Origin: a virus
Length of the DNA: 59,477 nt
Virus record (IMG/VR): IMGVR_UViG_3300022851_000003
Direction: 5' to 3' (one strand)
The first letter of the stretch is position 1. The number at the start of each line of letters is the position of its first letter. Shown piece by piece: positions 14,929 through 53,994 of this stretch. The position numbers were made by a program, and so were the translations under genes. The notes under the pieces are model-generated. The model was given only the letters and a program-made list of their open reading frames with translations. It did no database searches and had not been told where the DNA came from.

Positions 14929-15136
14929 CTGCAAAGGCAATGATCGCCACACCGGTAGCAATAAACACTGCCGGTAGAGTTCGATTATGCAGTTGCACGA
15001 TAGCGAGCGAAGATCGATCCATGTTTGTGACGTACGAAGGACCGCTTAACGTCCTGCCGTCTTGCCGACAAGTGAAAGCGGCATAGAAAAAAACTAAGCC
15101 TGCTACCACCAAGAGAGCCCTCTTTACCATGTCCAT
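14903..15136 (-). CDS. candidate small two-helix membrane protein (antisense, moron-like)
   Basis: 77-aa ORF filling the gap between two plus genes; two hydrophobic helices; GGGAG 7 nt upstream of ATG. Confidence 0.3.
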   Translation of the reverse strand: MDMVKRALLVVAGLVFFYAAFTCRQDGRTLSGPSYVTNMDRSSLAIVQLHNRTLPAVFIATGVAIIAFAAKGSASDS

Positions 15137-18100
15137 CTACGATCTCCCTGTTGCCACTGCAACACGCCCCGGCCGTCTTCGTGGCCGATCGATCTATGAC
15201 AACGCCGGGTACGCTGCGCCGCCGATCGGTTTGGGCAATCTGCCCTCGCTTGCCGCCCCCACCATGCGAGTCGCGGGAGGGGCAGCATCGATTTACGATA
15301 CACCAAACCTGCCACCGATGCAGCCAGTTCCCGGTGCCGACCAGGCTGGACCCGCTGCGATGGGACCGCCAGTGGATCCCGACGATCCGTCTCTGTTCGC
15401 TCAAGCCCGCGACGTGGGACTCGGCGGATTGTCCATGCTTGGCAACTTACTCGACATTCCCGGTTCCATGGTTCGGGACGCTCTGACGTGGATCCCAGGC
15501 GGCATCGCGGCCCGCAATCCGTTAGACCAATTGCTCTCGCCGCTGTCCGACCAGAATCGCACGACGGGCGAGGAACTACTTCGCCTGGATGAGTGGCAAC
15601 CGGATTCGTGGTACGGATCGGTCGGTAAGTTCGGGGCTGGAATGGCTGCGGAAATTGCATTGGACCCCCTCACTTACATAACGCTCGGTGGAACCGCGCT
15701 GACGAAAACGGGTGGTCAACTGGCATCGCGGGCGGGAATGATGGGCGATGCCGCAAACGTCGCTAACCGCAAACTCGCAGCCCAAGCTGCCGAGGCCGGG
15801 ACCGACGCGGTGACCGTCGGCGCGAGAGAAGCACGGCAACTGGTCAATCCCCGCGAACTGGCGGCAAACCTCGATGAAGCCTCGCGTCGCAAGTTCCGTG
15901 ACGGAACGACCGGGGACATCCTCGACGATGCTGTCGAAACCGTTGCGCACACAGACGGCCACCCCATCGGCGTCGAAGAACTCGTGCGGTCCTACAACGG
16001 CATGAACGCTCGCGCCATCAAAGCCGGCGAGATGCCCGCTGCCAGTTTGTCCGACGACATGATCGATGCGTTCCGCACGGGAACCGCGTCGACCGATGAC
16101 CTGCTCGCTCAATCGAACATCCCGGCTGATTACCTCGACGAAGCGATCGGTGGAAACTTCCGGTTCAAGGTTCCGTTTGCGAACAAGCCGATCAACATCC
16201 CGTTCACCGACAGGGCCATCCCCGACGAATTCGTTTTCAACGACCTACGGTTGCCGATCCCTGGAAAAGCCCGCGAACTTGGCGGGTTGGGTGCGAGAGC
16301 AATTGGTGACCTTCCGATCCCGAAAACCGACAAGCGTATCCAAGACCTGATCCCTGATTTTGCGAGAGACCTGCCCGGCATGGCCGCTGACGGGCGCATC
16401 GAAGGGCGAACGATTGCGCGTGCGATGGACAAGACCGCCGATGCGGTGATGAATAACCGTCCAATGCTGACGGTGTCTTCGATGTTTGACCGAGTGGGTC
16501 GCGAAGCCAAGCACAAACTTTCCCGTGCCGCTGCCCGTGAATCGGCTCAACGTGGCGAAGAGATGGCTCGTGTTGTGCGAGAAGAAGCTGCGGGACCAAT
16601 GGCTGATGCTGACAAGAAAATGCAAGCCTACAGCCGAACCGAGGGCGTCACACAACAAGACGTACTGGACACTCAGTTCGATATTTTGGATCGCATGGAG
16701 GGAGCCTTGACCGACGATCAACTTAGTCCCGTTGCTGCTCAGTTCCAGCCTGCGATGGACTTCTTCACCAACGCCTTCCGCACGCAAGCCGATCAAGCAG
16801 AGGCGTTCGGCCAAAACCAACAACGGTTGCGTGAAGGCATCTCGTATGAAGTCCCCAAGGTCAACCCTGACGGAACCGAGGTTTTAGGCAAAGACGGAAA
16901 GCCCGAAATCGAAAAGGTTGTTCTGCAAAGTCCCATCGAGTATGTGCCTCGTAACCGGCAAAACGAATCGGGAGTAATGCGCCGCGTTGGCAATGCCATG
17001 AGCAAATCGGGACGGATGATTCAACCCGACGGATTCACCAAGGGCCGCGACGAGGCGATGCGACACCTTCGGACTTCGCAAATTCAACGCATGTCCCTTG
17101 ACAAAAAGTTCGCCGGTCGCGCTGACCGTGGAGTCCTGGGTGGAAAGCGATCGCGAGAACTCGCGGCAGGAAACACCGGGCAGTTTCCCGACACGGGCGT
17201 CATGGGAAGCTCGCTGCTTGAACGCGATACACCCGAGTGGGAACAAGCGTACTCCGCGTTCAAGAAAGCCTACCCGCCCGCAAAAGACTACATGCGACTG
17301 GCCGAACGTGGAGAACTCAAGGACATCAACGGGAACCTGGTCGAGTGGTCACCTGCGCTTGACGAAGCCCTCGACGACAAGCACCGGCAATTGTTCAGCA
17401 AGATCACACAGCTCGATCGCGCTCAGGTCGAGCGTGGTGTTCCGATGTTCGACACCAACGTCTTCCAGGCTGGATTGAACCGACTCGAGTCTGGCTACCA
17501 ATCCGCTGCCCAGGAACTCGGAACTCGAAAACTGCTATCCACGTCCGCACGATTGGCGAAACCACGTCCAGTTGCCGAACAGTCGGCCGCTCCCACAAGC
17601 AAACTTGCCTCCACCTCCGGTCGCAACATCGATTCAATGAACCTGCTTGGCGAGAACGGTGAGAACCTTGAACGTCTCGGACTCAATCACGATCGCGGAA
17701 AACAGAAACTACTGGGCGAATTGGCCGAACAGGGGCACGACATCGACGGCATGGCTGAATCGATCATGGCACCGAAGCGTGATAAAATTGCAACTGAGTT
17801 GACCGAACTGATCGCCAGGAACTCGGACACGCCCATTGCTGACCTGCAAGGACCGATTCGTGAGGCACTGGACAATGACCCCGATTCACTGCTGGCGGCG
17901 ATCACCACCGACGAAGCGATGCAGGAGCGGATCGGGAAGTTGGTTGACAAGTACACCAACGTCGAGGCCAAACCCGATGACATCTTGAAGAAATTCGAGA
18001 TCGACGCGGACTTAGGCAACGACATGATGGCCGTCAACACTCGGTTTTCCACGCCCGAGGAAATCAAAGCGTTCACCGAAGCGTTAGACGCATTCACCAA

Positions 18101-19625
18101 TATGTTCAAGACCAACGTCACCGCCGCGTTCCCCTCGTTCCATACGCGGAACTTGTTCTCGGCCATGATGCAAAACGCACTCAACGGCGTGACCGACACC
18201 TCCGCTACGCGATTGCGAGATCGATTCTTCAAGCCGTACTCGGATGCTCGAAAGGTAATCAATGGCGAGGTTCTTGCGGACGCGAATCAACTACCAGGAA
18301 TGGAAAAACTCTCACCCGAGGAAGCCACCGAAAAGTTCCGAGATGAAATCTTTGCCCAGAAAATCATTGATGCCACGGGCGACCACAACGACATCCCCGG
18401 CCTACCATCGGGTGGCGCGATCGATGCTCGGCCCGGTCAATCGCGTGGTCGTGCGGCGAACTTGCCTGAAAGCAAAGGGTGGGACTTGGTTGAAAAGATT
18501 CCATTTGCTAGGAACTTTGCCCGCAACGTTCGCGAGGCGTCATTGCCACCCAAAAAAACCCGATGGCGGGACACGTTCAACCCGCTCGAAAGTTCGGCCG
18601 TTCGTGGCACACGCGAAGGCACTGTGAAGTACGGCGGTGAGCGAATCGGTCGCGCCCTCGGTAACGAGATTGAATCCACGGTTCGGATCGCCCCGTACAT
18701 TGCCTTTCGTCGACAAGGTTTCACTGCATCAGAAGCCGCCAAAAAAGTTAAATCACTTCAGGTGGACTACAACGACCTAACCAGAACAGAACGCAAAGTG
18801 ATGCGGCGTGCTGCCCCTTTTTATTCGTTCAATAAAGGAGCCACCAAATACCTCGCGGGTGAATTATCCACTCGCCCCGGCGGCCCTGTGGCGATGACGA
18901 TCAAAGCCGCCGAGAACGCATCGGGCAACGACCCCGGCACGCCCGAGTACATTCGCGACGGACTCAACATTCCGCTTGGTGGTGCGGCAGAGGACGGATC
19001 ACGGAACTACCTGACTGGTGCCGGCCTCATGCACGAGCCTCCTGCTCAACTGCTTGGTAATAACATCCAAGAGACATTCTACAACGCAGCCAGCATGGCG
19101 CATCCGATCCCCAAAGCGTTGATCGAATACATCACCGACGAGTCCCTGTTCCTGCGGGACGGCAAGGGAGGCGGACGCGACCTGGACGACATCGACCCGC
19201 CCGTTGGCGGCACACTCCGTAATATCGGCCAATTCACGGGACTACTGGACAAGGAACGCCGTTCCCCCATTGACCTGCCGATCCCATTCGAGAAAGAGTT
19301 TGAACTGGCTGTCGCGAATTCGCCCGCTGCCCGATACCTGTCTCAGATTCGCAAGGCGACGGACAATCGAAAGAACCCTCTCGAAAAGCTGTTAAACGGC
19401 CTAACTGGATTCAATGTCGCCACGGTCGAACCGAATGACCGCGATGCGGTCCTGCGAGAACAACTGGAGCAACTTCTGCGAGACATGGGCGGTCGAACCT
19501 TCAGCCAAGCGTACATGCCCGATACGACACTCGCTGAAATGGGAATGTCGCAGCAAGACCAAGTCGCGAAGATCAAGGAAGCCCTCCGTCAGATCAACGC
19601 ACGACGACGAAACAGCAGCGATTGA
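15129..19625 (+). CDS. very large virion-associated protein (possibly tape-measure or internal protein)
   Basis: 1498-aa uninterrupted ORF ending the structural arc; no catalytic motif recognised. Confidence 0.6.
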   Translation: MSIYDLPVATATRPGRLRGRSIYDNAGYAAPPIGLGNLPSLAAPTMRVAGGAASIYDTPNLPPMQPVPGADQAGPAAMGPPVDPDDPSLFAQARDVGLGGLSMLGNLLDIPGSMVRDALTWIPGGIAARNPLDQLLSPLSDQNRTTGEELLRLDEWQPDSWYGSVGKFGAGMAAEIALDPLTYITLGGTALTKTGGQLASRAGMMGDAANVANRKLAAQAAEAGTDAVTVGAREARQLVNPRELAANLDEASRRKFRDGTTGDILDDAVETVAHTDGHPIGVEELVRSYNGMNARAIKAGEMPAASLSDDMIDAFRTGTASTDDLLAQSNIPADYLDEAIGGNFRFKVPFANKPINIPFTDRAIPDEFVFNDLRLPIPGKARELGGLGARAIGDLPIPKTDKRIQDLIPDFARDLPGMAADGRIEGRTIARAMDKTADAVMNNRPMLTVSSMFDRVGREAKHKLSRAAARESAQRGEEMARVVREEAAGPMADADKKMQAYSRTEGVTQQDVLDTQFDILDRMEGALTDDQLSPVAAQFQPAMDFFTNAFRTQADQAEAFGQNQQRLREGISYEVPKVNPDGTEVLGKDGKPEIEKVVLQSPIEYVPRNRQNESGVMRRVGNAMSKSGRMIQPDGFTKGRDEAMRHLRTSQIQRMSLDKKFAGRADRGVLGGKRSRELAAGNTGQFPDTGVMGSSLLERDTPEWEQAYSAFKKAYPPAKDYMRLAERGELKDINGNLVEWSPALDEALDDKHRQLFSKITQLDRAQVERGVPMFDTNVFQAGLNRLESGYQSAAQELGTRKLLSTSARLAKPRPVAEQSAAPTSKLASTSGRNIDSMNLLGENGENLERLGLNHDRGKQKLLGELAEQGHDIDGMAESIMAPKRDKIATELTELIARNSDTPIADLQGPIREALDNDPDSLLAAITTDEAMQERIGKLVDKYTNVEAKPDDILKKFEIDADLGNDMMAVNTRFSTPEEIKAFTEALDAFTNMFKTNVTAAFPSFHTRNLFSAMMQNALNGVTDTSATRLRDRFFKPYSDARKVINGEVLADANQLPGMEKLSPEEATEKFRDEIFAQKIIDATGDHNDIPGLPSGGAIDARPGQSRGRAANLPESKGWDLVEKIPFARNFARNVREASLPPKKTRWRDTFNPLESSAVRGTREGTVKYGGERIGRALGNEIESTVRIAPYIAFRRQGFTASEAAKKVKSLQVDYNDLTRTERKVMRRAAPFYSFNKGATKYLAGELSTRPGGPVAMTIKAAENASGNDPGTPEYIRDGLNIPLGGAAEDGSRNYLTGAGLMHEPPAQLLGNNIQETFYNAASMAHPIPKALIEYITDESLFLRDGKGGGRDLDDIDPPVGGTLRNIGQFTGLLDKERRSPIDLPIPFEKEFELAVANSPAARYLSQIRKATDNRKNPLEKLLNGLTGFNVATVEPNDRDAVLREQLEQLLRDMGGRTFSQAYMPDTTLAEMGMSQQDQVAKIKEALRQINARRRNSSD

Positions 19626-46139: not shown

Positions 46140-47303
46140 ATGCCCGAACAGGTACTCGGACTTTTTGACGGGCGGCTAACCGAACGCCAACTCCAGTCAA
46201 ACCGCACCAACATTCTCGAGGGCATCACCGATGCCTGTACCCGCAACCTGCAAATGATGGCCCTGCTTCAGCAATCGGGCAACATTTTGTACGGACAAGG
46301 TGGGTTCGGAATGTTCTGGAAGATCAAGCACAAGTTGCACCGACTGATTGGCAGCAACGGCGAACGTGCGCGTAACTACAACCAGGTCAACCAGTACAAG
46401 ACCGCTCGGTTGGACTATCGCGGTTACGAAGTCAACGACACGATCAGCCGCAAGGAACTCAAGCAGAACCGTGGCGACTCGGCGGTCATTAAGATCTTCG
46501 ACGACTTCGAGCAAAACCTCATCACGTCCATGGAACAGGGGCTCGGCCCGCAGTTCTACGGCGATGGTGACAACGTCGCCAATCCCGATAGCTGGCACGG
46601 TCTGTTGTCGATGGTTCGCCAGAACGGGGAAACCATCAACGCCGCGACCAATACCGCACGGGCTCGCAACGGTGCCGACAAGGTCGTCTCGCCGACGGGA
46701 ACCTACGCCGGATTGGAATGCGGTCTTGGTGAATACGGGGGCGCTCAAAACGAGACCAACGTGACCTGGCCGGAAGGAACCGCTGGCACCGAGTACGACT
46801 TCTGGTCGCCGCTCATGCTGCAATGGGACGGAACCGGATTCGGCACGTCCGCCTCGCCGACCGATGGGGAGAAACTTGTTGACGCGCTGCAGTATGGATT
46901 GATCCATGCCCAACGCAACACCAACAAGAACGGTGCGATCTCCAACTTCTGGACCGATCGCACAAGTTTCTTCTCGCTCAAACGCCACGCCACTTCGTTG
47001 CAAACGATCGAAGTCACCACCGGCGGCGACCTCTACAAACTCGGCTTCAAAAACACGATTGAAGTCGACGGCGTGACCTGCTCATTCGAGAACGCGATCC
47101 CCGTTGGATACGGTTTCGGAATGAACATGGCCGACATGGAACTGCGATGCCTCGATGACCAGATGTTCGAGATCGACGGGCCGGAATGGGACATGGATCT
47201 GCAACTCTGGAAGACCGCCGTTCAAACGAACAGCAACCTCGTCTTCCGCAGCCCTCGCAACTGCCTGTTCCTGTTGCCGGCGTCGGCCATCGTCGCTGCC
47301 TAA
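46140..47303 (+). CDS. hypothetical protein (possible major capsid protein)
   Basis: 387-aa ORF; assignment by size and position only. Confidence 0.4.
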   Translation: MPEQVLGLFDGRLTERQLQSNRTNILEGITDACTRNLQMMALLQQSGNILYGQGGFGMFWKIKHKLHRLIGSNGERARNYNQVNQYKTARLDYRGYEVNDTISRKELKQNRGDSAVIKIFDDFEQNLITSMEQGLGPQFYGDGDNVANPDSWHGLLSMVRQNGETINAATNTARARNGADKVVSPTGTYAGLECGLGEYGGAQNETNVTWPEGTAGTEYDFWSPLMLQWDGTGFGTSASPTDGEKLVDALQYGLIHAQRNTNKNGAISNFWTDRTSFFSLKRHATSLQTIEVTTGGDLYKLGFKNTIEVDGVTCSFENAIPVGYGFGMNMADMELRCLDDQMFEIDGPEWDMDLQLWKTAVQTNSNLVFRSPRNCLFLLPASAIVAA

Positions 47304-47995: not shown

Positions 47996-48586
47996 GTGCC
48001 CCGCCCTGCTGACGAACCTGCTTTCACGCCCGAGCATCCGCCGGGCGACGAAAAGTTCTGCACGCTATGCGGGGAAGAAAAACCCATCGACGAATTCCAC
48101 GTCGATGAGTCGGCTCATGACGGACGCAAGTCCAATTGCAAGGCGTGCCGATCACTTCAGCACGCCGAAGATGTGGAGTCTAAGGTCGACCCCCGCCTCG
48201 CCAAGATTGAAGAGGCAGGACTCGAAGCGCTCGACGCCTTCGCGGGTGGCGGATCATTCAACCCGCACACCCAAGAGCTGATCGACGGGTTTATGAGATT
48301 CCTGGGCGGTCACTACGGCCTGGTGAAACTGACGATGGCCCACTACCACGCGGCCAAACCAGGCAGTGCCGAGCGAGGGAAGACACTCGATAAAATCTAC
48401 CGGCTGATCGCCGCTGAGGACAAGCAGGATGGCTCGCTCGACAAACTTGACCGACGCCAACTCGAAGCCCTCGTCGTCAGCATCGGCACCAAAGCCGGGA
48501 TGCTGCCCAAGCCGAACGACACGCTGTCTCTCGATCACCCCGAAACCGTCAACGCGATCGCCCGTTCCAAAGGCGACGCACTATGA
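47996..48586 (+). CDS. zinc-ribbon protein (possible terminase small subunit)
   Basis: CTLCGEEK...CKAC; directly upstream of and overlapping the large terminase start. Confidence 0.35.
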   Translation: MPRPADEPAFTPEHPPGDEKFCTLCGEEKPIDEFHVDESAHDGRKSNCKACRSLQHAEDVESKVDPRLAKIEEAGLEALDAFAGGGSFNPHTQELIDGFMRFLGGHYGLVKLTMAHYHAAKPGSAERGKTLDKIYRLIAAEDKQDGSLDKLDRRQLEALVVSIGTKAGMLPKPNDTLSLDHPETVNAIARSKGDAL

Positions 48587-51441
48587 TTGACGACATCGAA
48601 TTCAGTGACATCGATCTTTCGACACACCTCGACACCGCCAACGAGATGCAGTCGGGCAGCGAAGCCAACGACTACGTGATCGACGAGTATCACCTGCACA
48701 AGATGCACTCCGCAGCGTCGGAGATCCAGCGCCGGGACATGGAGGCGATGCGGATCTATCGCCCCTCCAAAATCCAAGAGCAGTACCACGCATCCACTGC
48801 CAAGGAGACCGTGTTCGTTGCCGGGAACCAAATCGGCAAATCCATTGCCGGATACTCGGAAGACGGACGAGCTGCCGGTGGATGCGACCCGTACGGCAAG
48901 TACCCCGAGAAAGATGGCATCCTGGCCATCGTGGTCTACAAGGAATCGCAGATCAGGCTGAACACCTATCGGTATCTCCTCAAGCCCGGTGCGTTCGACA
49001 TCATCCAAGACGAAGAGACCGGCATCTGGAAACCCTATTATCCCTGGGTTCCCTCCGATGTTGCTCGCGCCGATCAACGGCGGCCCGCCCCACCGATCCT
49101 TCCACCGCGAATGATTAAGAGAATCCACTGGAAGTCCAAGATGGGCAACGTCCTGTCTCGGATCGACATGGAGAACGGTTGGGAGATTCACGTCTTCTCG
49201 TCGACCGCGAAACCAGATGCCGGGTTCCAAGCCGACCTCGTTCATATCGATGAAGACATCGCCAACGAAGAATGGTACGTCGAGATGATCGCCCGTCTCT
49301 CGATCCGCAAGGGACTCCTGCGATGGACCGCCCTACCGCTGTTCGATAACGACGCGCTGCCTCGTATCGTCGAACGGGCCGACGACGAAGCGGAGAAGCA
49401 CGCACGCGGCGGACCTGTGCCTACCACGACGGTCGTTCGCGGAACCATTTTCGATAACCCGTACCTGACCGACGATACCCGCGAAGAAAACATCAAGCGA
49501 TGGAAGGACGCGGGCGACGATGTCTACCGGCAACGTGCCCTCGGAGAACTCATCACCGACACGGTTCGGATGTACCCGACGTTCACGCCGGAAATCCATG
49601 CCGTCCAACGTTACGGCGAATCGCATCCTGAGTTGTTCGGCGAGTACCTTCGCACCCGTCGAATCCCCGACGATTGGTGTCTGAGATTGTTTGTTGACCC
49701 TGGGTTCTCCACCTGTGCCGCGTTGCTGTTCGCGACCCTGCGACCCGAGGGCGGCGACGACTCCGAACCAATGATTCACGTTGCTGTGCGTGAAATCTAT
49801 CGCCAGCAATGTGACGCCTCGATCTTTGCCCAACTCGCCTCGCAAACCGTTGGCGATCGATGGTTGCAAGCGATGGTCATCGACGCCCACGGTGGTCGAC
49901 TCACCGGCATCGGCGATGGTCGGCGTCCACAAGAGATCTACGAAAGCGAACTGGCCGAACGAAACGTCGTGTGCGTGGAGACCGGCTCTCGCTTCCGTGC
50001 TGGCTGCGACGACATCGTCTACCGGGAAACCGCACTGCGACAACGGTTGATCGTCTCGCCAGTCACCGGGCTACCGGAGTTTATGTACGACGAGGAGATG
50101 TGCCCGAACCTTGAAAAAGAAATGGTGCGGTTCCGAAAGCTGAGAACCCGTGGCGTCATCACCGATAAAGGCAACCGCAAAGCATTTACGCACGCTGTCG
50201 AGTGTTTCTGTGACCAAACCGAAGTCCTTACTGAAAGTGGCTGGAAGCGTTTTGCAGACGCCAGTATCAGCGACCGTTTAGCGACCGTGAACTTGGATAC
50301 CGATACGCTTGAGTTTCAGCATCCATCTCGAATTGTTGAAAGACCTCACAACGGACCGATGGTTCATGTTCACGCACAGAAGCTCAATGCGATGGTCACT
50401 CCTAATCATCGGATGGTTTACTACTCCGACACCGCAAGGCGAAAAAAGACAGGTCCATCTATCTGTTTCGCGGGCGACCTGTCTCCAAGCTATGCGTTAA
50501 AGCTGGCGGCAAAAAACTGGAACGCAGTTTCACCAAAGACATTCGTGCTGCCTGCGGTAGAACTGGATTCGCGACCAGGTAAGCCTGCCGAATTAAACAG
50601 ACTCGACTTCGCCCGGTTCATGGGATGGTACATCGCCGAAGGCTCTGCGGACAAAACAGTGCGTTGCCCTGGAAAGGGCTATCGCGTGTGCATTGCACAG
50701 AGAAAAGAACACGGCATCAACGCGATTCGCGAAATGCTTTCAAAGCTACCGTTTCATTTCGTTGTATCGGGCGACTGCTTCGTGATCTCCAACAAGCAAC
50801 TGTGGTCGTACCTTCGCCAGTTCGGAGACTGCTACACCAAGTTCGTTCCAGACTGGGTGCGACACGGAAGCAGAGAAGTCATCGAGTCGTTTATGGAAGG
50901 CGCTATGGCTGGCGATGGGTGGGTACAAAAGAACGCTCGACGATACGGAACCTCCAGCCCCCGCCTCGCCGACGACATCCAAGAACTATTCCTCAAACTC
51001 GGTTGTTCTGCATCTGTCACTGTTCGGTCGGCAGAGACGGCCGTGTCAAGGATGGTGAGAGGAAAGCCCTGCAAATCTACCTGTGATTTCTTCACGGTAA
51101 TCGAGAGGCTTGTTCCGAGCGTCCGCCTTAGTGACGCACACGACAAGCCGAATTTCAGCACAACGAACTACACCGGAAAGGTGTTCTGCGCAACCGTCCC
51201 CAATGGGACTCTTGTTGTAAGACGCAACGGCCAACCGCTCGTCGCTGGCAATTGCTATGAGTACGCAGCCGCCGACGAACTCAAGTACCACGCACCTCCC
51301 GCCCGTCGAACCCGCGAAACCCCCGGCGAACGTCGTGTTCGGATGTGGCGGGAACGCCAAGCGAAGCGACGAAAACAAATGGGTGGCGCTCTCGGCGTCA
51401 TCCATGGCGGCATCGACCTGTCTGCTCCCATGCCCACTTAA
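48583..51441 (+). CDS. terL: terminase large subunit interrupted by an intein
   Basis: P-loop-like VFVAGNQIGKS, Walker B-like ADLVHIDE, nuclease-like RLFVDPGFS and AMVIDAHGG; 350-aa intein in the C-terminal region. Confidence 0.65.
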   Translation: MIDDIEFSDIDLSTHLDTANEMQSGSEANDYVIDEYHLHKMHSAASEIQRRDMEAMRIYRPSKIQEQYHASTAKETVFVAGNQIGKSIAGYSEDGRAAGGCDPYGKYPEKDGILAIVVYKESQIRLNTYRYLLKPGAFDIIQDEETGIWKPYYPWVPSDVARADQRRPAPPILPPRMIKRIHWKSKMGNVLSRIDMENGWEIHVFSSTAKPDAGFQADLVHIDEDIANEEWYVEMIARLSIRKGLLRWTALPLFDNDALPRIVERADDEAEKHARGGPVPTTTVVRGTIFDNPYLTDDTREENIKRWKDAGDDVYRQRALGELITDTVRMYPTFTPEIHAVQRYGESHPELFGEYLRTRRIPDDWCLRLFVDPGFSTCAALLFATLRPEGGDDSEPMIHVAVREIYRQQCDASIFAQLASQTVGDRWLQAMVIDAHGGRLTGIGDGRRPQEIYESELAERNVVCVETGSRFRAGCDDIVYRETALRQRLIVSPVTGLPEFMYDEEMCPNLEKEMVRFRKLRTRGVITDKGNRKAFTHAVECFCDQTEVLTESGWKRFADASISDRLATVNLDTDTLEFQHPSRIVERPHNGPMVHVHAQKLNAMVTPNHRMVYYSDTARRKKTGPSICFAGDLSPSYALKLAAKNWNAVSPKTFVLPAVELDSRPGKPAELNRLDFARFMGWYIAEGSADKTVRCPGKGYRVCIAQRKEHGINAIREMLSKLPFHFVVSGDCFVISNKQLWSYLRQFGDCYTKFVPDWVRHGSREVIESFMEGAMAGDGWVQKNARRYGTSSPRLADDIQELFLKLGCSASVTVRSAETAVSRMVRGKPCKSTCDFFTVIERLVPSVRLSDAHDKPNFSTTNYTGKVFCATVPNGTLVVRRNGQPLVAGNCYEYAAADELKYHAPPARRTRETPGERRVRMWRERQAKRRKQMGGALGVIHGGIDLSAPMPT
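50203..51252 (+). mobile_element. intein with LAGLIDADG homing endonuclease
   Basis: Block A CFCDQTEVLTESG, block B TPNH, LAGLIDADG motifs FMGWYIAEGS and FMEGAMAGDG, C-terminal VAGN followed by Cys +1. Confidence 0.7.
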
Positions 51442-51837: not shown

Positions 51838-53994
51838 ATGACCGACTTCGATCCCATCACCGCCGACGGCAATAACTCGAAACGACGATTCGCCCCATTG
51901 GTGGAGCGTTGGAAGGGGGCCATCAAGGCTGCCACAGAGCACCGTAAAAAGGAATTCGATTGCGTGGCCGATGAGGCACGTCGGTTCTTCGACGGCAAAG
52001 CGTCGGACTTTTGGGAGGGCATGGCCAAGCAGGCGTCCGAATCCACGGACCAAGGATTCCTGGCGGGATCGTCGCTCGTTCCTCAGTTCAAGATCTCACT
52101 CAACCGGATGTTCGATGCGGTCGCCATGTTCGGCCCCGCACTGTACCACCAAAACCCAACGATCGCGGTCACGTCGCGGCCGTCCACTGGCGTCTCGATC
52201 GACACGTTCTACGCGGGCAACCCGCAAGCGACTCAGATCCTCGATCTTATCCCGGCATTGCAGTCGGGACAGATCCAAGACCCTAACGTCGGATTCATGG
52301 TCACGCAGCTCCAGCAGCAGTACGACAATGCCATTCGAGCGAACCAACGACGCATCGACATCAACAACGATCACGCGATCTTGATGCAGTCGCTCTCCAA
52401 TTACTACCAAAACGAAGGGCACAAGCAGGATGAAGCACGCCTCGCGATCACCGAGGCCATCGTCACCGGGCTCGGACTGCTCGAACCCATCCTTGAGTCT
52501 TCACCCGCTGGCGGACCACGTATCCCCGCTTGTCGCTTCATCTCCAACAAAGACTTCATCATCGATCCCGATGCGTGCTACTGGCGTGACGTGACCTGGA
52601 TCGCTGTCCGTCGCGCCAGCCCGCGAAACGTCGTCGAACAGAAATTCAATTTGCCACCGGGTTCACTCAAGGGAAAGCACGCCTCCAACACGGCACTGAC
52701 CGGCGAAAACCCACGGCAAAAGAAACGCCACGGCAACGGCAAGGTCGTCAACCGATCGCACGAAATCGTGGAATACTACGATCTCTTTTCCAAGAACGGC
52801 GCAGGCCAGAACCTCCAAATCCTCGAAAACCAAAAGGGACTCTCGCCAGAACTGGAACTGCTCGGTGACTTCGTCTACTTGGCGATCTGCCCGGGCTGCC
52901 ATTACCCGCTGAATTTGCCTGACGAACTGCCACTCGTCGCACCTCCCGAGATGGTGATCGGGGAAGACGGTCTTCCAATGATGCCGGAGATGTCGGCGCC
53001 TCCCGAACCCAACCCGGCGGCACTCGAAGCGACCGCTTGGCCCGCTCCGTTCTGGGATGACGTTCACACCGATGGCGGTTGGCCTATCTGTCGACTGACG
53101 TTCTACGAGAACCCGGGCAAGACCTGGCCCCTGTCCATGGCCGCGCCGTGCATCGGCGAAATGAAGTTCATCAACTGGTGCATGTCGTTCCTCGCCGATG
53201 GGGTCGCTGCCGGATCCAAGATCTACGTCGCCTGCCAGAAGTCCGCTGCGGAGAACCTCAAGTCCCAATTGGTCGGTGGCGGCGGACCCTTCACGACGAT
53301 CGAACTGGAAGCAATCACCGGCAAGAACATCAACGAGATCATCTCGTTCTTGACCGCTCCCACGTTCAACGTCGACATCTGGAACATGATCGCCCAAGTC
53401 AACGACCAGATCGACAAGCGACTCGGACTCAACGAGCTGATGTACGGGTCGTCGTCACGACAAATGCGATCGGCCGCCGAGGCCCAGTACCGTCAATCCA
53501 ATATCAACATCCGTCCCGACGACATGGCGTCCCGCGTGGAGGATTGGTTGTCCATCACTGCGGTTCGTGAGATTCAACTACTGCGATGGGACGGAACGTA
53601 CGAAGATGTCCAACCGATCATCGGGGACATCGGAGCCCGCGTCTTCGCCGAACAGATTCAAACCCGCAGCGTCTCCGATGTGACACGAGAGTTTCACTTC
53701 CGAGTCGAAGCCGGCACGGCACGCAAGCCGAACAAAGACACCCGAATCGCACAACTCAACGAACTCTCGCAATACCTCCTGCCGACCGCCCAACAAGCGA
53801 TGTCCATGGGACTGCCGGGGCCGTTCAATGCGTTCATGGAAGACCTCGGTCGTGCGATGGACATTGATCCAACACGCTACATGATCGACGCGGAAGACCA
53901 AGCCATGATGCAAGCCCAGGCGATGCAGCAGGCCACCATGAACCAGCAAGCGATGCAAGCCAACGAGGCAAACGCTCCAGCGGAGGCGGCATGA
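51838..53994 (+). CDS. putative portal protein
   Basis: 718-aa ORF just downstream of the terminase; assignment by size and position. Confidence 0.45.
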   Translation: MTDFDPITADGNNSKRRFAPLVERWKGAIKAATEHRKKEFDCVADEARRFFDGKASDFWEGMAKQASESTDQGFLAGSSLVPQFKISLNRMFDAVAMFGPALYHQNPTIAVTSRPSTGVSIDTFYAGNPQATQILDLIPALQSGQIQDPNVGFMVTQLQQQYDNAIRANQRRIDINNDHAILMQSLSNYYQNEGHKQDEARLAITEAIVTGLGLLEPILESSPAGGPRIPACRFISNKDFIIDPDACYWRDVTWIAVRRASPRNVVEQKFNLPPGSLKGKHASNTALTGENPRQKKRHGNGKVVNRSHEIVEYYDLFSKNGAGQNLQILENQKGLSPELELLGDFVYLAICPGCHYPLNLPDELPLVAPPEMVIGEDGLPMMPEMSAPPEPNPAALEATAWPAPFWDDVHTDGGWPICRLTFYENPGKTWPLSMAAPCIGEMKFINWCMSFLADGVAAGSKIYVACQKSAAENLKSQLVGGGGPFTTIELEAITGKNINEIISFLTAPTFNVDIWNMIAQVNDQIDKRLGLNELMYGSSSRQMRSAAEAQYRQSNINIRPDDMASRVEDWLSITAVREIQLLRWDGTYEDVQPIIGDIGARVFAEQIQTRSVSDVTREFHFRVEAGTARKPNKDTRIAQLNELSQYLLPTAQQAMSMGLPGPFNAFMEDLGRAMDIDPTRYMIDAEDQAMMQAQAMQQATMNQQAMQANEANAPAEAA

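Follow-up and report, generated by a model that had tools for sequence, protein, structure and literature searches.

The 59,477-nucleotide virus record IMGVR_UViG_3300022851_000003 of IMG/VR (its full length is referred to here as the window) very probably contains a mobile canonical bipartite intein at nucleotides 50203-51252 of the + strand. As judged from sequence, profiles and predicted fold, this segment of 350 residues comprises a Hint splicing domain that a LAGLIDADG homing endonuclease domain interrupts. It lies in frame within the gene for the terminase large subunit (TerL) of a tailed phage known only from metagenomes. Considering its sequence and modeled structure, we infer that the element both splices and cuts DNA, and that the copy in the window is most likely active.

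The open reading frame (ORF) in question (48583-51441, +) encodes a TerL precursor of 952 residues plus stop, in which the intein occupies residues 541-890 and the reading frame is continuous. The codon that follows the intein (51253-51255) encodes Cys and is succeeded by YEYAAAD. Excision leaves a TerL extein of exactly 602 residues, 62 of them in the C-extein. A preliminary description of this DNA, based on the letters and the ORF list, had reported the same ORF and segment and had put the two lengths at about 602 and about 62. A search with the spliced sequence returned 161 relatives, the best 120 of which are all unnamed metagenomic proteins. Most of these 120 have 510-614 residues and no insert, and in the range of 550-610 residues more than 100 homologs are free of it, one of them 82% identical. 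The intein-free homologs in our alignment (A1) read THxVE-[C/A/T]x-EYAAA, and joining E540 to C891 gives THAVE-CY-EYAAA, which restores both the length and the consensus with no residue gained or lost. The boundaries E540/C541 and N890/C891 (a slash marks a splice junction) are the only ones that restore the two-residue VE-EY spacing of the intein-free proteins; if the intein were taken to start at the second Cys, two extra residues would remain. In DNA, the junction of the window reads ACGCACGCTGTCGAG/intein/TGCTATGAGTACGCAGCC, and the uninterrupted allele of the 82%-identical homolog (L001) reads ACGCACGCTGCGGAG^TGCTTCGAGTATGCAGCC, so that GAG/TGC of the window equals the uninterrupted GAG^TGC. 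The segment is therefore an in-frame insertion that orthologs lack and whose removal restores the host exactly. The preliminary description had suggested such an alignment and had proposed an intein; the alignment agrees with that proposal, and the segment is not a contiguous conserved domain of homologous terminases, most of which lack it.

The distribution of the intein among TerL relatives is patchy. The nearest relatives (82-63% identity) are devoid of it, and a homologous intein is present at the same motif in two more distant homologs, P0025 (48% intein identity) and P0091 (40%). Such a sporadic distribution is expected of a homing element. In P0025 the intein is inserted one codon downstream (HAVET/.../CEYAAA) compared with the window (HAVE/.../CYEY, 50200-51258). 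The P0025 site (L005) agrees with its intein-free relative P0030 (L006), which reads HAIETCEY, and in each subfamily the insertion is directly before the sole Cys of the two-residue linker. Therefore, the insertion appears to follow the available Cys. At least 10 contigs in the JGI, Logan and NCBI metagenome assemblies, about 25-60 kb in length, encode the identical 952-residue protein; they come from several samples and include the full packaging module. It follows that the allele is real and circulating. On some JGI contigs TerL is called as two ORFs (519+439 or 489+452 residues; P0241, P0242, P0243 and P0245). We considered a naturally split gene and rejected it, as these calls look like frameshift or assembly artefacts in the N-extein, one of them at an A5 run (around 50118-50135 of the window, CTTGAAAAAGAAATG).

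The intein (translation CFCDQTEVLTESG...NGQPLVAGN) has a complete set of motifs, all on the + strand. To describe them, we use counts of catalytic positions in 110 full-length members of its family. Block A (CFCDQTEVLTESG, 50203-50241) starts with the putative N-terminal nucleophile, Cys1 (Cys541 of the precursor), found in all 110 members, and includes T6, found in 108. Block B (AMVTPNHRMVYY, 50389-50424) contains TPNH at intein residues 66-69. It provides Thr B:7 and His B:10 (110/110 each), Arg B:11 (103/110) and Met B:12 (94/110), and aligns with PNHRM of the AceL NrdHF intein. The first LAGLIDADG motif (FARFMGWYIAEGS, 50608-50646), with FMGWYIAEGS at residues 138-147, has a Gly present in 110/110 and the predicted catalytic Glu146 (intein numbering), assigned through the alignment with PI-PkoII. 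The second motif (FMEGAMAGDGW, 50890-50922), with FMEGAMAGDG at residues 230-239, contains the predicted catalytic Asp238, and Asp is found there in 107/110. Counting either Asp or Glu, the acidic residue is retained in 106 of the 110 first motifs and in 107 of the second ones. Block F (GKVFCATVPNGTLVVRRNG, 51175-51231) lacks the block-F His and has Cys329 at F:4, a Cys in all 110 members; at F:13 the family has Tyr, Val or Ile, with one His in 110. In block G (QPLVAGN, 51232-51252; VAGN is at 347-350), position G:5 is Ala (Ser, Cys or Ala in the family), the penultimate G:6 is Gly (107/110) and the terminal G:7 is Asn (110/110). Residue +1, Cys in the window, is Ser in 52, Cys in 47 and Thr in 11 members, which together account for all 110. 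In all full-length relatives the sequence starts C-[YHF]-x-x-x-T-E-V-L-T and closes with [S/C/A]-G-N, after which comes Cys, Ser or Thr. At all counted catalytic positions the window intein has the family residue. The motifs named in the preliminary description are in place, including TPNH, both LAGLIDADG motifs and VAGN followed by Cys.

Profile searches and structure prediction point in the same direction. Pfam LAGLIDADG_3 (PF14528) matches residues 226-275 with 42.9 bits against a cut-off of 22.5, which together with the two acidic residues (YIAE146G and AGD238G) confirms the LAGLIDADG endonuclease of the preliminary description. A tblastn search of phage records with the intein gave E-values down to 7e-31 and alignments over the full length (1-350). 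Among PDB sequences, phmmer found PI-PkoII for the endonuclease part and AceL NrdHF for the N-terminal splicing part (E = 0.0096). A profile of 48 family members matches PI-PkoII (1.4e-20), TliVMA (5e-16) and AceL NrdHF (7e-9), as well as PI-SceI and I-DmoI. The LAGLIDADG_3, tblastn and profile scores are far beyond chance level. The AlphaFold2 model of the intein has a predicted local distance difference test score (pLDDT) of 95.6, and its top Foldseek matches are crystal structures of intein endonucleases: TliVMA (1.9e-17), then PhoVMA, PI-PkoII, PI-SceI and PI-PfuI (to about 1e-12). I-DmoI covers the central endonuclease domain with a template modeling (TM) score of about 0.6-0.68 on the target. 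The predicted structure, aligned along its full length to intein structures, thus has a Hint fold and a pseudo-dimeric LAGLIDADG fold. PHROG_85 and PHROG_12229 also match the intein, through their intein-containing members. An intron was considered and rejected, as there is no Rfam match at E<=1 and the reading frame is continuous.

Relatives of the intein occur in unrelated host genes. In cultured phages, inserts that align with the whole intein (1-350) are found in methylases, ThyX, ribonucleotide reductase and a TerL. The metagenomic proteins that align with it number more than 110; among them are ThyX, C1 peptidases, NrdD, MCM, methyltransferases, a ferredoxin-like family and terminases of three kinds. 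This search returned nothing longer than 612 residues, although P0001, P0025 and P0091 (901-952 residues) contain the intein, and the census of host proteins is therefore biased to short or fragmentary ones. The family has many members and is marked by a C-terminal catalytic set that departs from the canonical one (Gly-Asn, Arg B:11, Cys F:4), which makes it relevant to work on splicing mechanism and protein engineering.

The host gene product, as judged from profile matches and a structural model, is a terminase large subunit, in agreement with the preliminary description. PHROG_2 (terminase large subunit) matches the spliced sequence at 3e-14, and Pfam Terminase_6N matches it weakly. The closest intein-free relative is P0002 (595 residues, 82% identity). 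Its AlphaFold model (pLDDT 88.7) matches the full-length TerL structures of D6E, Sf6, T4 gp17 and HK97, and also the isolated nuclease domains of P22 and SPP1. The gene is located in a head-packaging module, with a major head protein upstream (46140-47303) and a portal protein downstream (51838-53994). Overall, this TerL family is distant, Terminase_6N-like and known only from metagenomes.

The N-extein (residues 1-540, 48583-50202, +) includes the ATPase domain and most of the RNase H-like nuclease domain, as delineated by alignment A1 with intein-free homologs, the weak Terminase_6N match and the TerL fold of P0002. The Walker A motif or P-loop (GNQIGKS, residues 81-87, 48823-48843, +) aligns in profile comparison with the P-loop of P74-26 TerL (GRQSGKS) and is free of inteins here. 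The Walker B region is probably DLVHIDED (residues 218-225, 49234-49257, +), an assignment suggested by the TerL motif pattern; I222, D223, E224 and D225 are invariant in alignments A1 and A4. Within the nuclease domain, LFVDPGF (49687-49707, +) matches the DVGW motif of P22-type nucleases in hhalign, and its invariant D372 would be the first catalytic carboxylate. The second one may be D434, which is also in an invariant column, within VIDAHGG (49876-49896, +). A further nuclease motif, THAVE (H537-x-x-E540, 50188-50202, +), found by alignment with homologs and by hhalign, ends exactly at the insertion point. The C-extein (62 residues plus stop, 51253-51441, +) begins with the putative Cys+1 nucleophile (CYEYAAAD...), as seen in the translation and alignment A1.

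A different intein is found in ten TerL homologs (P0004, P0012, P0013, P0020, P0052, P0057, P0063, P0082, P0104 and P0056), between Lys and Ser of Walker A (GNQxGK/...THN/S). Its first residue is not a nucleophile, its block B has DxxHxW and its block F a Cys, and it ends in Thr-His-Asn; by motif pattern, this is the class 3 WCT signature. In P0056 it is a mini version of about 160 residues. No homolog has both inteins together, and the P-loop of the window (48823-48843) is uninterrupted. Immediately upstream of TerL, an ORF of 196 residues (47996-48586, +) overlaps the TerL start (ATGA overlap). Its N-terminal segment (residues 12-61) is rich in Cys and matches PHROGs annotated as Lar-like, endonuclease VII and HNH endonuclease (E from 6e-11 to 1e-7); the protein may be either a zinc-ribbon small terminase or a terminase partner of the HNH type. 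The largest ORF of the window (15129-19625, +, 1498 residues) has no PHROG match at E<=0.001.

The position of the intein within the nuclease domain deserves a closer look. In alignment A1, H537 never varies, and conservation of E540 reaches at least 90%, with replacement by Asp (as in P0013). In the P0002 model, the junction falls in the first turn of helix 530-540, after the last strands of the nuclease domain. Direct placement on a solved TerL nuclease by sequence gave no result: the full-length family profile matched the ATPase P-loop of P74-26 only, and the nuclease-only profile matched nothing meaningful in the PDB. The link came through the closest relatives of the intein (38-46% identity), which are inserted in P22-type (Terminase_6C) and GpA-type terminase nucleases (P0121-P0130, P0136, P0138-P0140). 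After splicing in silico, hosts of these relatives match the P22 TerL nuclease domain (4DKW) at 4e-32, and their junction, kNDHLMD/C.RY, aligns with NDDVLD-ATRY of P22 and NDHQLD-ADRY of D6E. Comparison of the nuclease domain of the window family with the P22-type family by hhalign (92.8% probability, E = 3.9e-7) pairs H-A-x-E/C with H-L-M-D/C. The GpA-type intein follows NEPLD/C, near the end of the GpA_nuclease profile.

In SPP1 G2P, His400 and Asp403 (H-x-x-D) coordinate Mn2+, and both D403N and H400A disrupt nuclease activity (PMC2685612); His427 and Asp429 of G20c have comparable roles (PMC5389553). H537-x-x-E540 would correspond to the metal-binding His400/Asp403 pair of SPP1 G2P, in which case the residue just before the intein is a carboxylate that binds metal in the nuclease active site. 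Since the insertion is directly after H-x-x-E, the unspliced precursor should have no correctly assembled nuclease active site. Such a precursor would be unable to cut DNA before splicing, and splicing would be obligatory for DNA packaging.

The most likely splicing chemistry is the canonical class 1 one, because Cys1 and the Thr that primes it are both invariant. The window intein has a position-1 nucleophile (Cys541), a block B TxxH (TPNH) and a terminal Asn followed by Cys+1, all of them class 1 features. The block B Thr is known to prime the position-1 nucleophile in class 1 inteins and is generally absent in class 3 (PMC6195587). In the proposed pathway, the 952-residue precursor would first be translated, and Cys1, helped by Thr B:7 and His B:10, would carry out an N-S acyl shift at the E540-C541 bond. 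The thioester would then be handed to Cys+1 (C891). Cyclisation of Asn350 would free the intein, with Arg B:11 and not a penultimate His polarising the scissile carbonyl. Finally, an S-N shift would yield the 602-residue TerL with the native ...THAVE-CYEYAAA... sequence.

The penultimate residue of the window intein is Gly349 instead of the usual His. The preliminary description had treated this as a possible impediment to splicing, a concern that we do not share. Because Gly is found in 107 of the 110 members, it is, on the alignment evidence, a conserved family trait and not a defect. Mycobacteriophage class 1 inteins often have Gly, Lys or Ser in place of the penultimate His, and an RDF phage intein with a native penultimate Gly splices, its splicing being dramatically slowed by the Gly-to-His change (PMC5050341, Kelley et al. 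2016). Similarly, the AceL NrdHF intein splices within minutes and its activity is abolished by G145H; its Arg69 (B:11) is located 2.5 Å from the carbonyl of the C-scissile bond (PMC7891396, Hoffmann et al. 2020). By analogy, Arg70 of the window intein may replace the penultimate His in its role.

Once freed, the intein would act as a site-specific endonuclease, both of its acidic residues being intact in the window allele. During co-infection it would cut intein-less alleles at about ACGCACGCTGCGGAG^TGCTTCGAGTATGCAGCC, the uninterrupted sequence of L001 and thus our candidate substrate. Repair of the cut allele by recombination would copy the intein in. GC content at third codon positions (GC3) is 0.574 in the intein and 0.697 in the extein (0.497 and 0.753 in P0025). 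No co-conversion tract was seen in the comparison with the 82%-identical intein-free allele: DNA identity is 0.63-0.72 around the junction and 0.76 overall. Two near-identical alleles from ENA and JGI, P0247 and P0249 (952 and 776 residues), have YIAKGS in place of YIAEGS, that is, E146K (codon 50635-50637 of the window). The endonuclease may thus be inactivated in part of the population, and such alleles fit the decay phase of the homing cycle. The same two alleles also have Tyr in place of Asp in AHDKPN.

Several points weigh against the interpretation of the element as a mobile class 1 intein in a nuclease active site. Curated hidden Markov models (HMMs) of the Hint domain (PF14890 Intein_splicing, PF05203 Hom_end_hint and the NCBIfam intein N/C models) are unreported on the intein at E<=1, and the Pfam and NCBIfam libraries match the endonuclease domain only. 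What supports the splicing domain is therefore the profile of the family together with the predicted fold and the pattern of motifs. The HMM search suggested in the preliminary description was thus positive for the family profile and LAGLIDADG_3 and without significance for the curated Hint models. Their silence probably explains why the protein is unnamed in every source. The invariant Cys F:4 makes Cys329, besides Cys1, a candidate for the first nucleophile. The reading of E540 as a metal ligand of the SPP1 D403 type derives from motif and profile alignment, not from superposition. Finally, the GC3 gap of the intein lies within the variation among the genes of the window (mean 0.645, sd 0.076) and is therefore weak evidence of foreign origin.

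The second of these points leads to the best of the alternatives, in which Cys329, instead of or besides Cys1, attacks the N-terminal junction, forming a branched thioester as in AceL NrdHF, with the acyl group then passing to Cys+1. Such a class-3-like route or two-cysteine relay is in keeping with Cys F:4 being found in all 110 members and with the resemblance of the splicing region to the class 3 AceL NrdHF (phmmer E = 0.0096, profile E = 7e-9). The two have in common Arg B:11, Met B:12, Cys F:4, Gly G:6 and the absence of both assisting His residues (PMC7891396). Moreover, class 3 inteins need no position-1 nucleophile, yet its presence is not forbidden (PMC5222942), and AceL NrdHF itself has an MCT variant of the triplet and is still class 3 (PMC7891396). 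However, neither Cys1 nor Thr B:7 of TxxH varies among the 110 members, and two of the three WCT positions differ (Met for Trp at B:12 and Ala for Thr at G:5), leaving only Cys F:4 of the triplet. Moreover, among inteins at large only one residue is reported to be commoner than Cys at F:4 (PMC4031507), and the operational definition of class 3 excludes inteins with an N-terminal Cys (PMC7891396). On balance, we consider this route unlikely.

The same residues admit a broader and similarly doubtful idea. The family is large (more than 110 members in at least 8 kinds of host proteins), mostly phage-borne, and mixes class 1 hallmarks (Cys1, TxxH) with the AceL NrdHF-type set (Cys F:4, Arg B:11, Met B:12, Gly G:6, no assisting His). 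Speculatively, it could splice by a relay from Cys1 to Cys F:4 to +1, or bridge class 1 and class 3, and the Cys pair might be a redox switch on terminase maturation.

It is considerably less probable that the intein has decayed, with splicing or homing lost, and that TerL is a dead gene or the endonuclease alone is dead. One might cite the missing penultimate His and the E146K alleles, P0247 and P0249, as a sign of endonuclease decay starting in the population. Nevertheless, nearly all of the family has Gly as the penultimate residue, and the window allele retains all the family-invariant splicing residues and both acidic residues of the endonuclease. In addition, the identical protein recurs on the contigs with a full packaging module described above, and, as a tailed phage cannot do without TerL, an allele that fails to splice would not last. 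Hardly credible is a reading without protein splicing, whether as an accessory domain peculiar to this terminase lineage or as an intron or free-standing homing endonuclease gene that became fused in frame: the absence of significant matches to standard splicing-domain HMMs would fit, but the nearest homologs lack the insert and have the conserved motif exactly as restored, Cys1 and Asn/Cys flank a segment with an internal TxxH and a Hint plus LAGLIDADG fold, homologous inserts in many unrelated proteins always end GN/C, S or T, no intron RNA family was detected in Rfam, and the insert splits the first turn of a predicted nuclease helix (P0002 residues 530-540), which an unspliced domain would disrupt.

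Taken as a mobile intein with most likely class 1 chemistry, the element can be compared with several known ones. Several inteins of cultured phages share the family signature: the ThyX intein of Corynebacterium phage P1201 (CYSSDTEVLT...TPNHKM...VYCATVPNHTLYVRRNGKPVWSGN/S), the record of which already carries a 'hypothetical intein' note, the methylase intein of mycobacteriophage StressBall (C...TPNHRV...VWCIGVP...ITGN/S) and the TerL intein of Gordonia phage GMA6 (C...TKNH...VYCVETP...MSGN/S). The P1201, GMA6 and mycobacteriophage methylase inteins have a LAGLIDADG domain and align with the window intein along the full length, yet at 23-27% identity, and their +1 residue is Ser. The GMA6 intein is located in the TerL ATPase domain, just upstream of Walker B, and the P1201 and methylase inteins are in other host genes. 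PI-PkoII, TliVMA/PhoVMA, PI-SceI and PI-PfuI share the two-domain architecture and fold (Foldseek E from 2e-17 to 3e-12), with aligned LAGLIDADG catalytic residues. However, they are only 10-16% identical to the window intein, are archaeal or from yeast and reside in other host proteins.

The only solved structure with a splicing domain that matches at the sequence level is the AceL NrdHF-1-1 split intein (PDB 6ZGQ), which comes from a phage-like metagenomic contig. Besides PNHRM (Arg B:11, Met B:12) and Cys F:4, both inteins have a Pro four residues past that Cys and a C-terminal Gly-Asn, and lack His at both F:13 and G:6. In contrast to the window intein, AceL NrdHF has Ala as the first residue, Ser at B:7 and Thr at G:5, and its membership of class 3 has been proven. 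It occurs naturally as two halves, separated by a GIY-YIG endonuclease gene, and is hosted by the ribonucleotide reductase beta subunit. The window intein is contiguous, with Cys1, Thr B:7, Ala G:5 and a LAGLIDADG domain, and is hosted by TerL. AceL NrdHF, the only characterised relative of the family, is fast and clean; contiguous members with Cys1 would suit the study of Asn cyclisation in the absence of either His, and of the role of the block-F Cys.

TerL is the commonest host of phage inteins. In mycobacteriophages, splicing and active endonucleases have been demonstrated for TerL inteins, and both a penultimate Gly in phage class 1 inteins and insertion sites one residue apart have been documented (PMC5050341; bioRxiv 10.1101/2025.01.02.630785, a 2025 survey of actinobacteriophages). 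All seven mycobacteriophage TerL insertion sites are in the ATPase domain (PMC5050341), whereas the window intein is in the nuclease domain, 62 residues from the C-terminus, of another TerL family. Thus, the kind of element is known, and its nuclease-domain TerL site is undescribed in the literature searched, which reflects the limit of searchable literature and is not proof of novelty. The P22-type and GpA-type inteins are inserted after the equivalent acidic residue (DHLMD/C.RY and NEPLD/CYVYA, compared with THAVE/CYEYA in the window). Their hosts belong to other terminase lineages, and they are unnamed metagenomic predictions, not described elements. Related inteins at the equivalent acid/Cys position in three terminase lineages suggest that homing has targeted one catalytic site whose structure is conserved among divergent hosts. 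For annotation, the mature TerL would have 602 and not 952 residues, in a product that standard intein HMMs miss. For intein biology, the nuclease active-site motif would be a new TerL insertion site, next to those in the ATPase domain.

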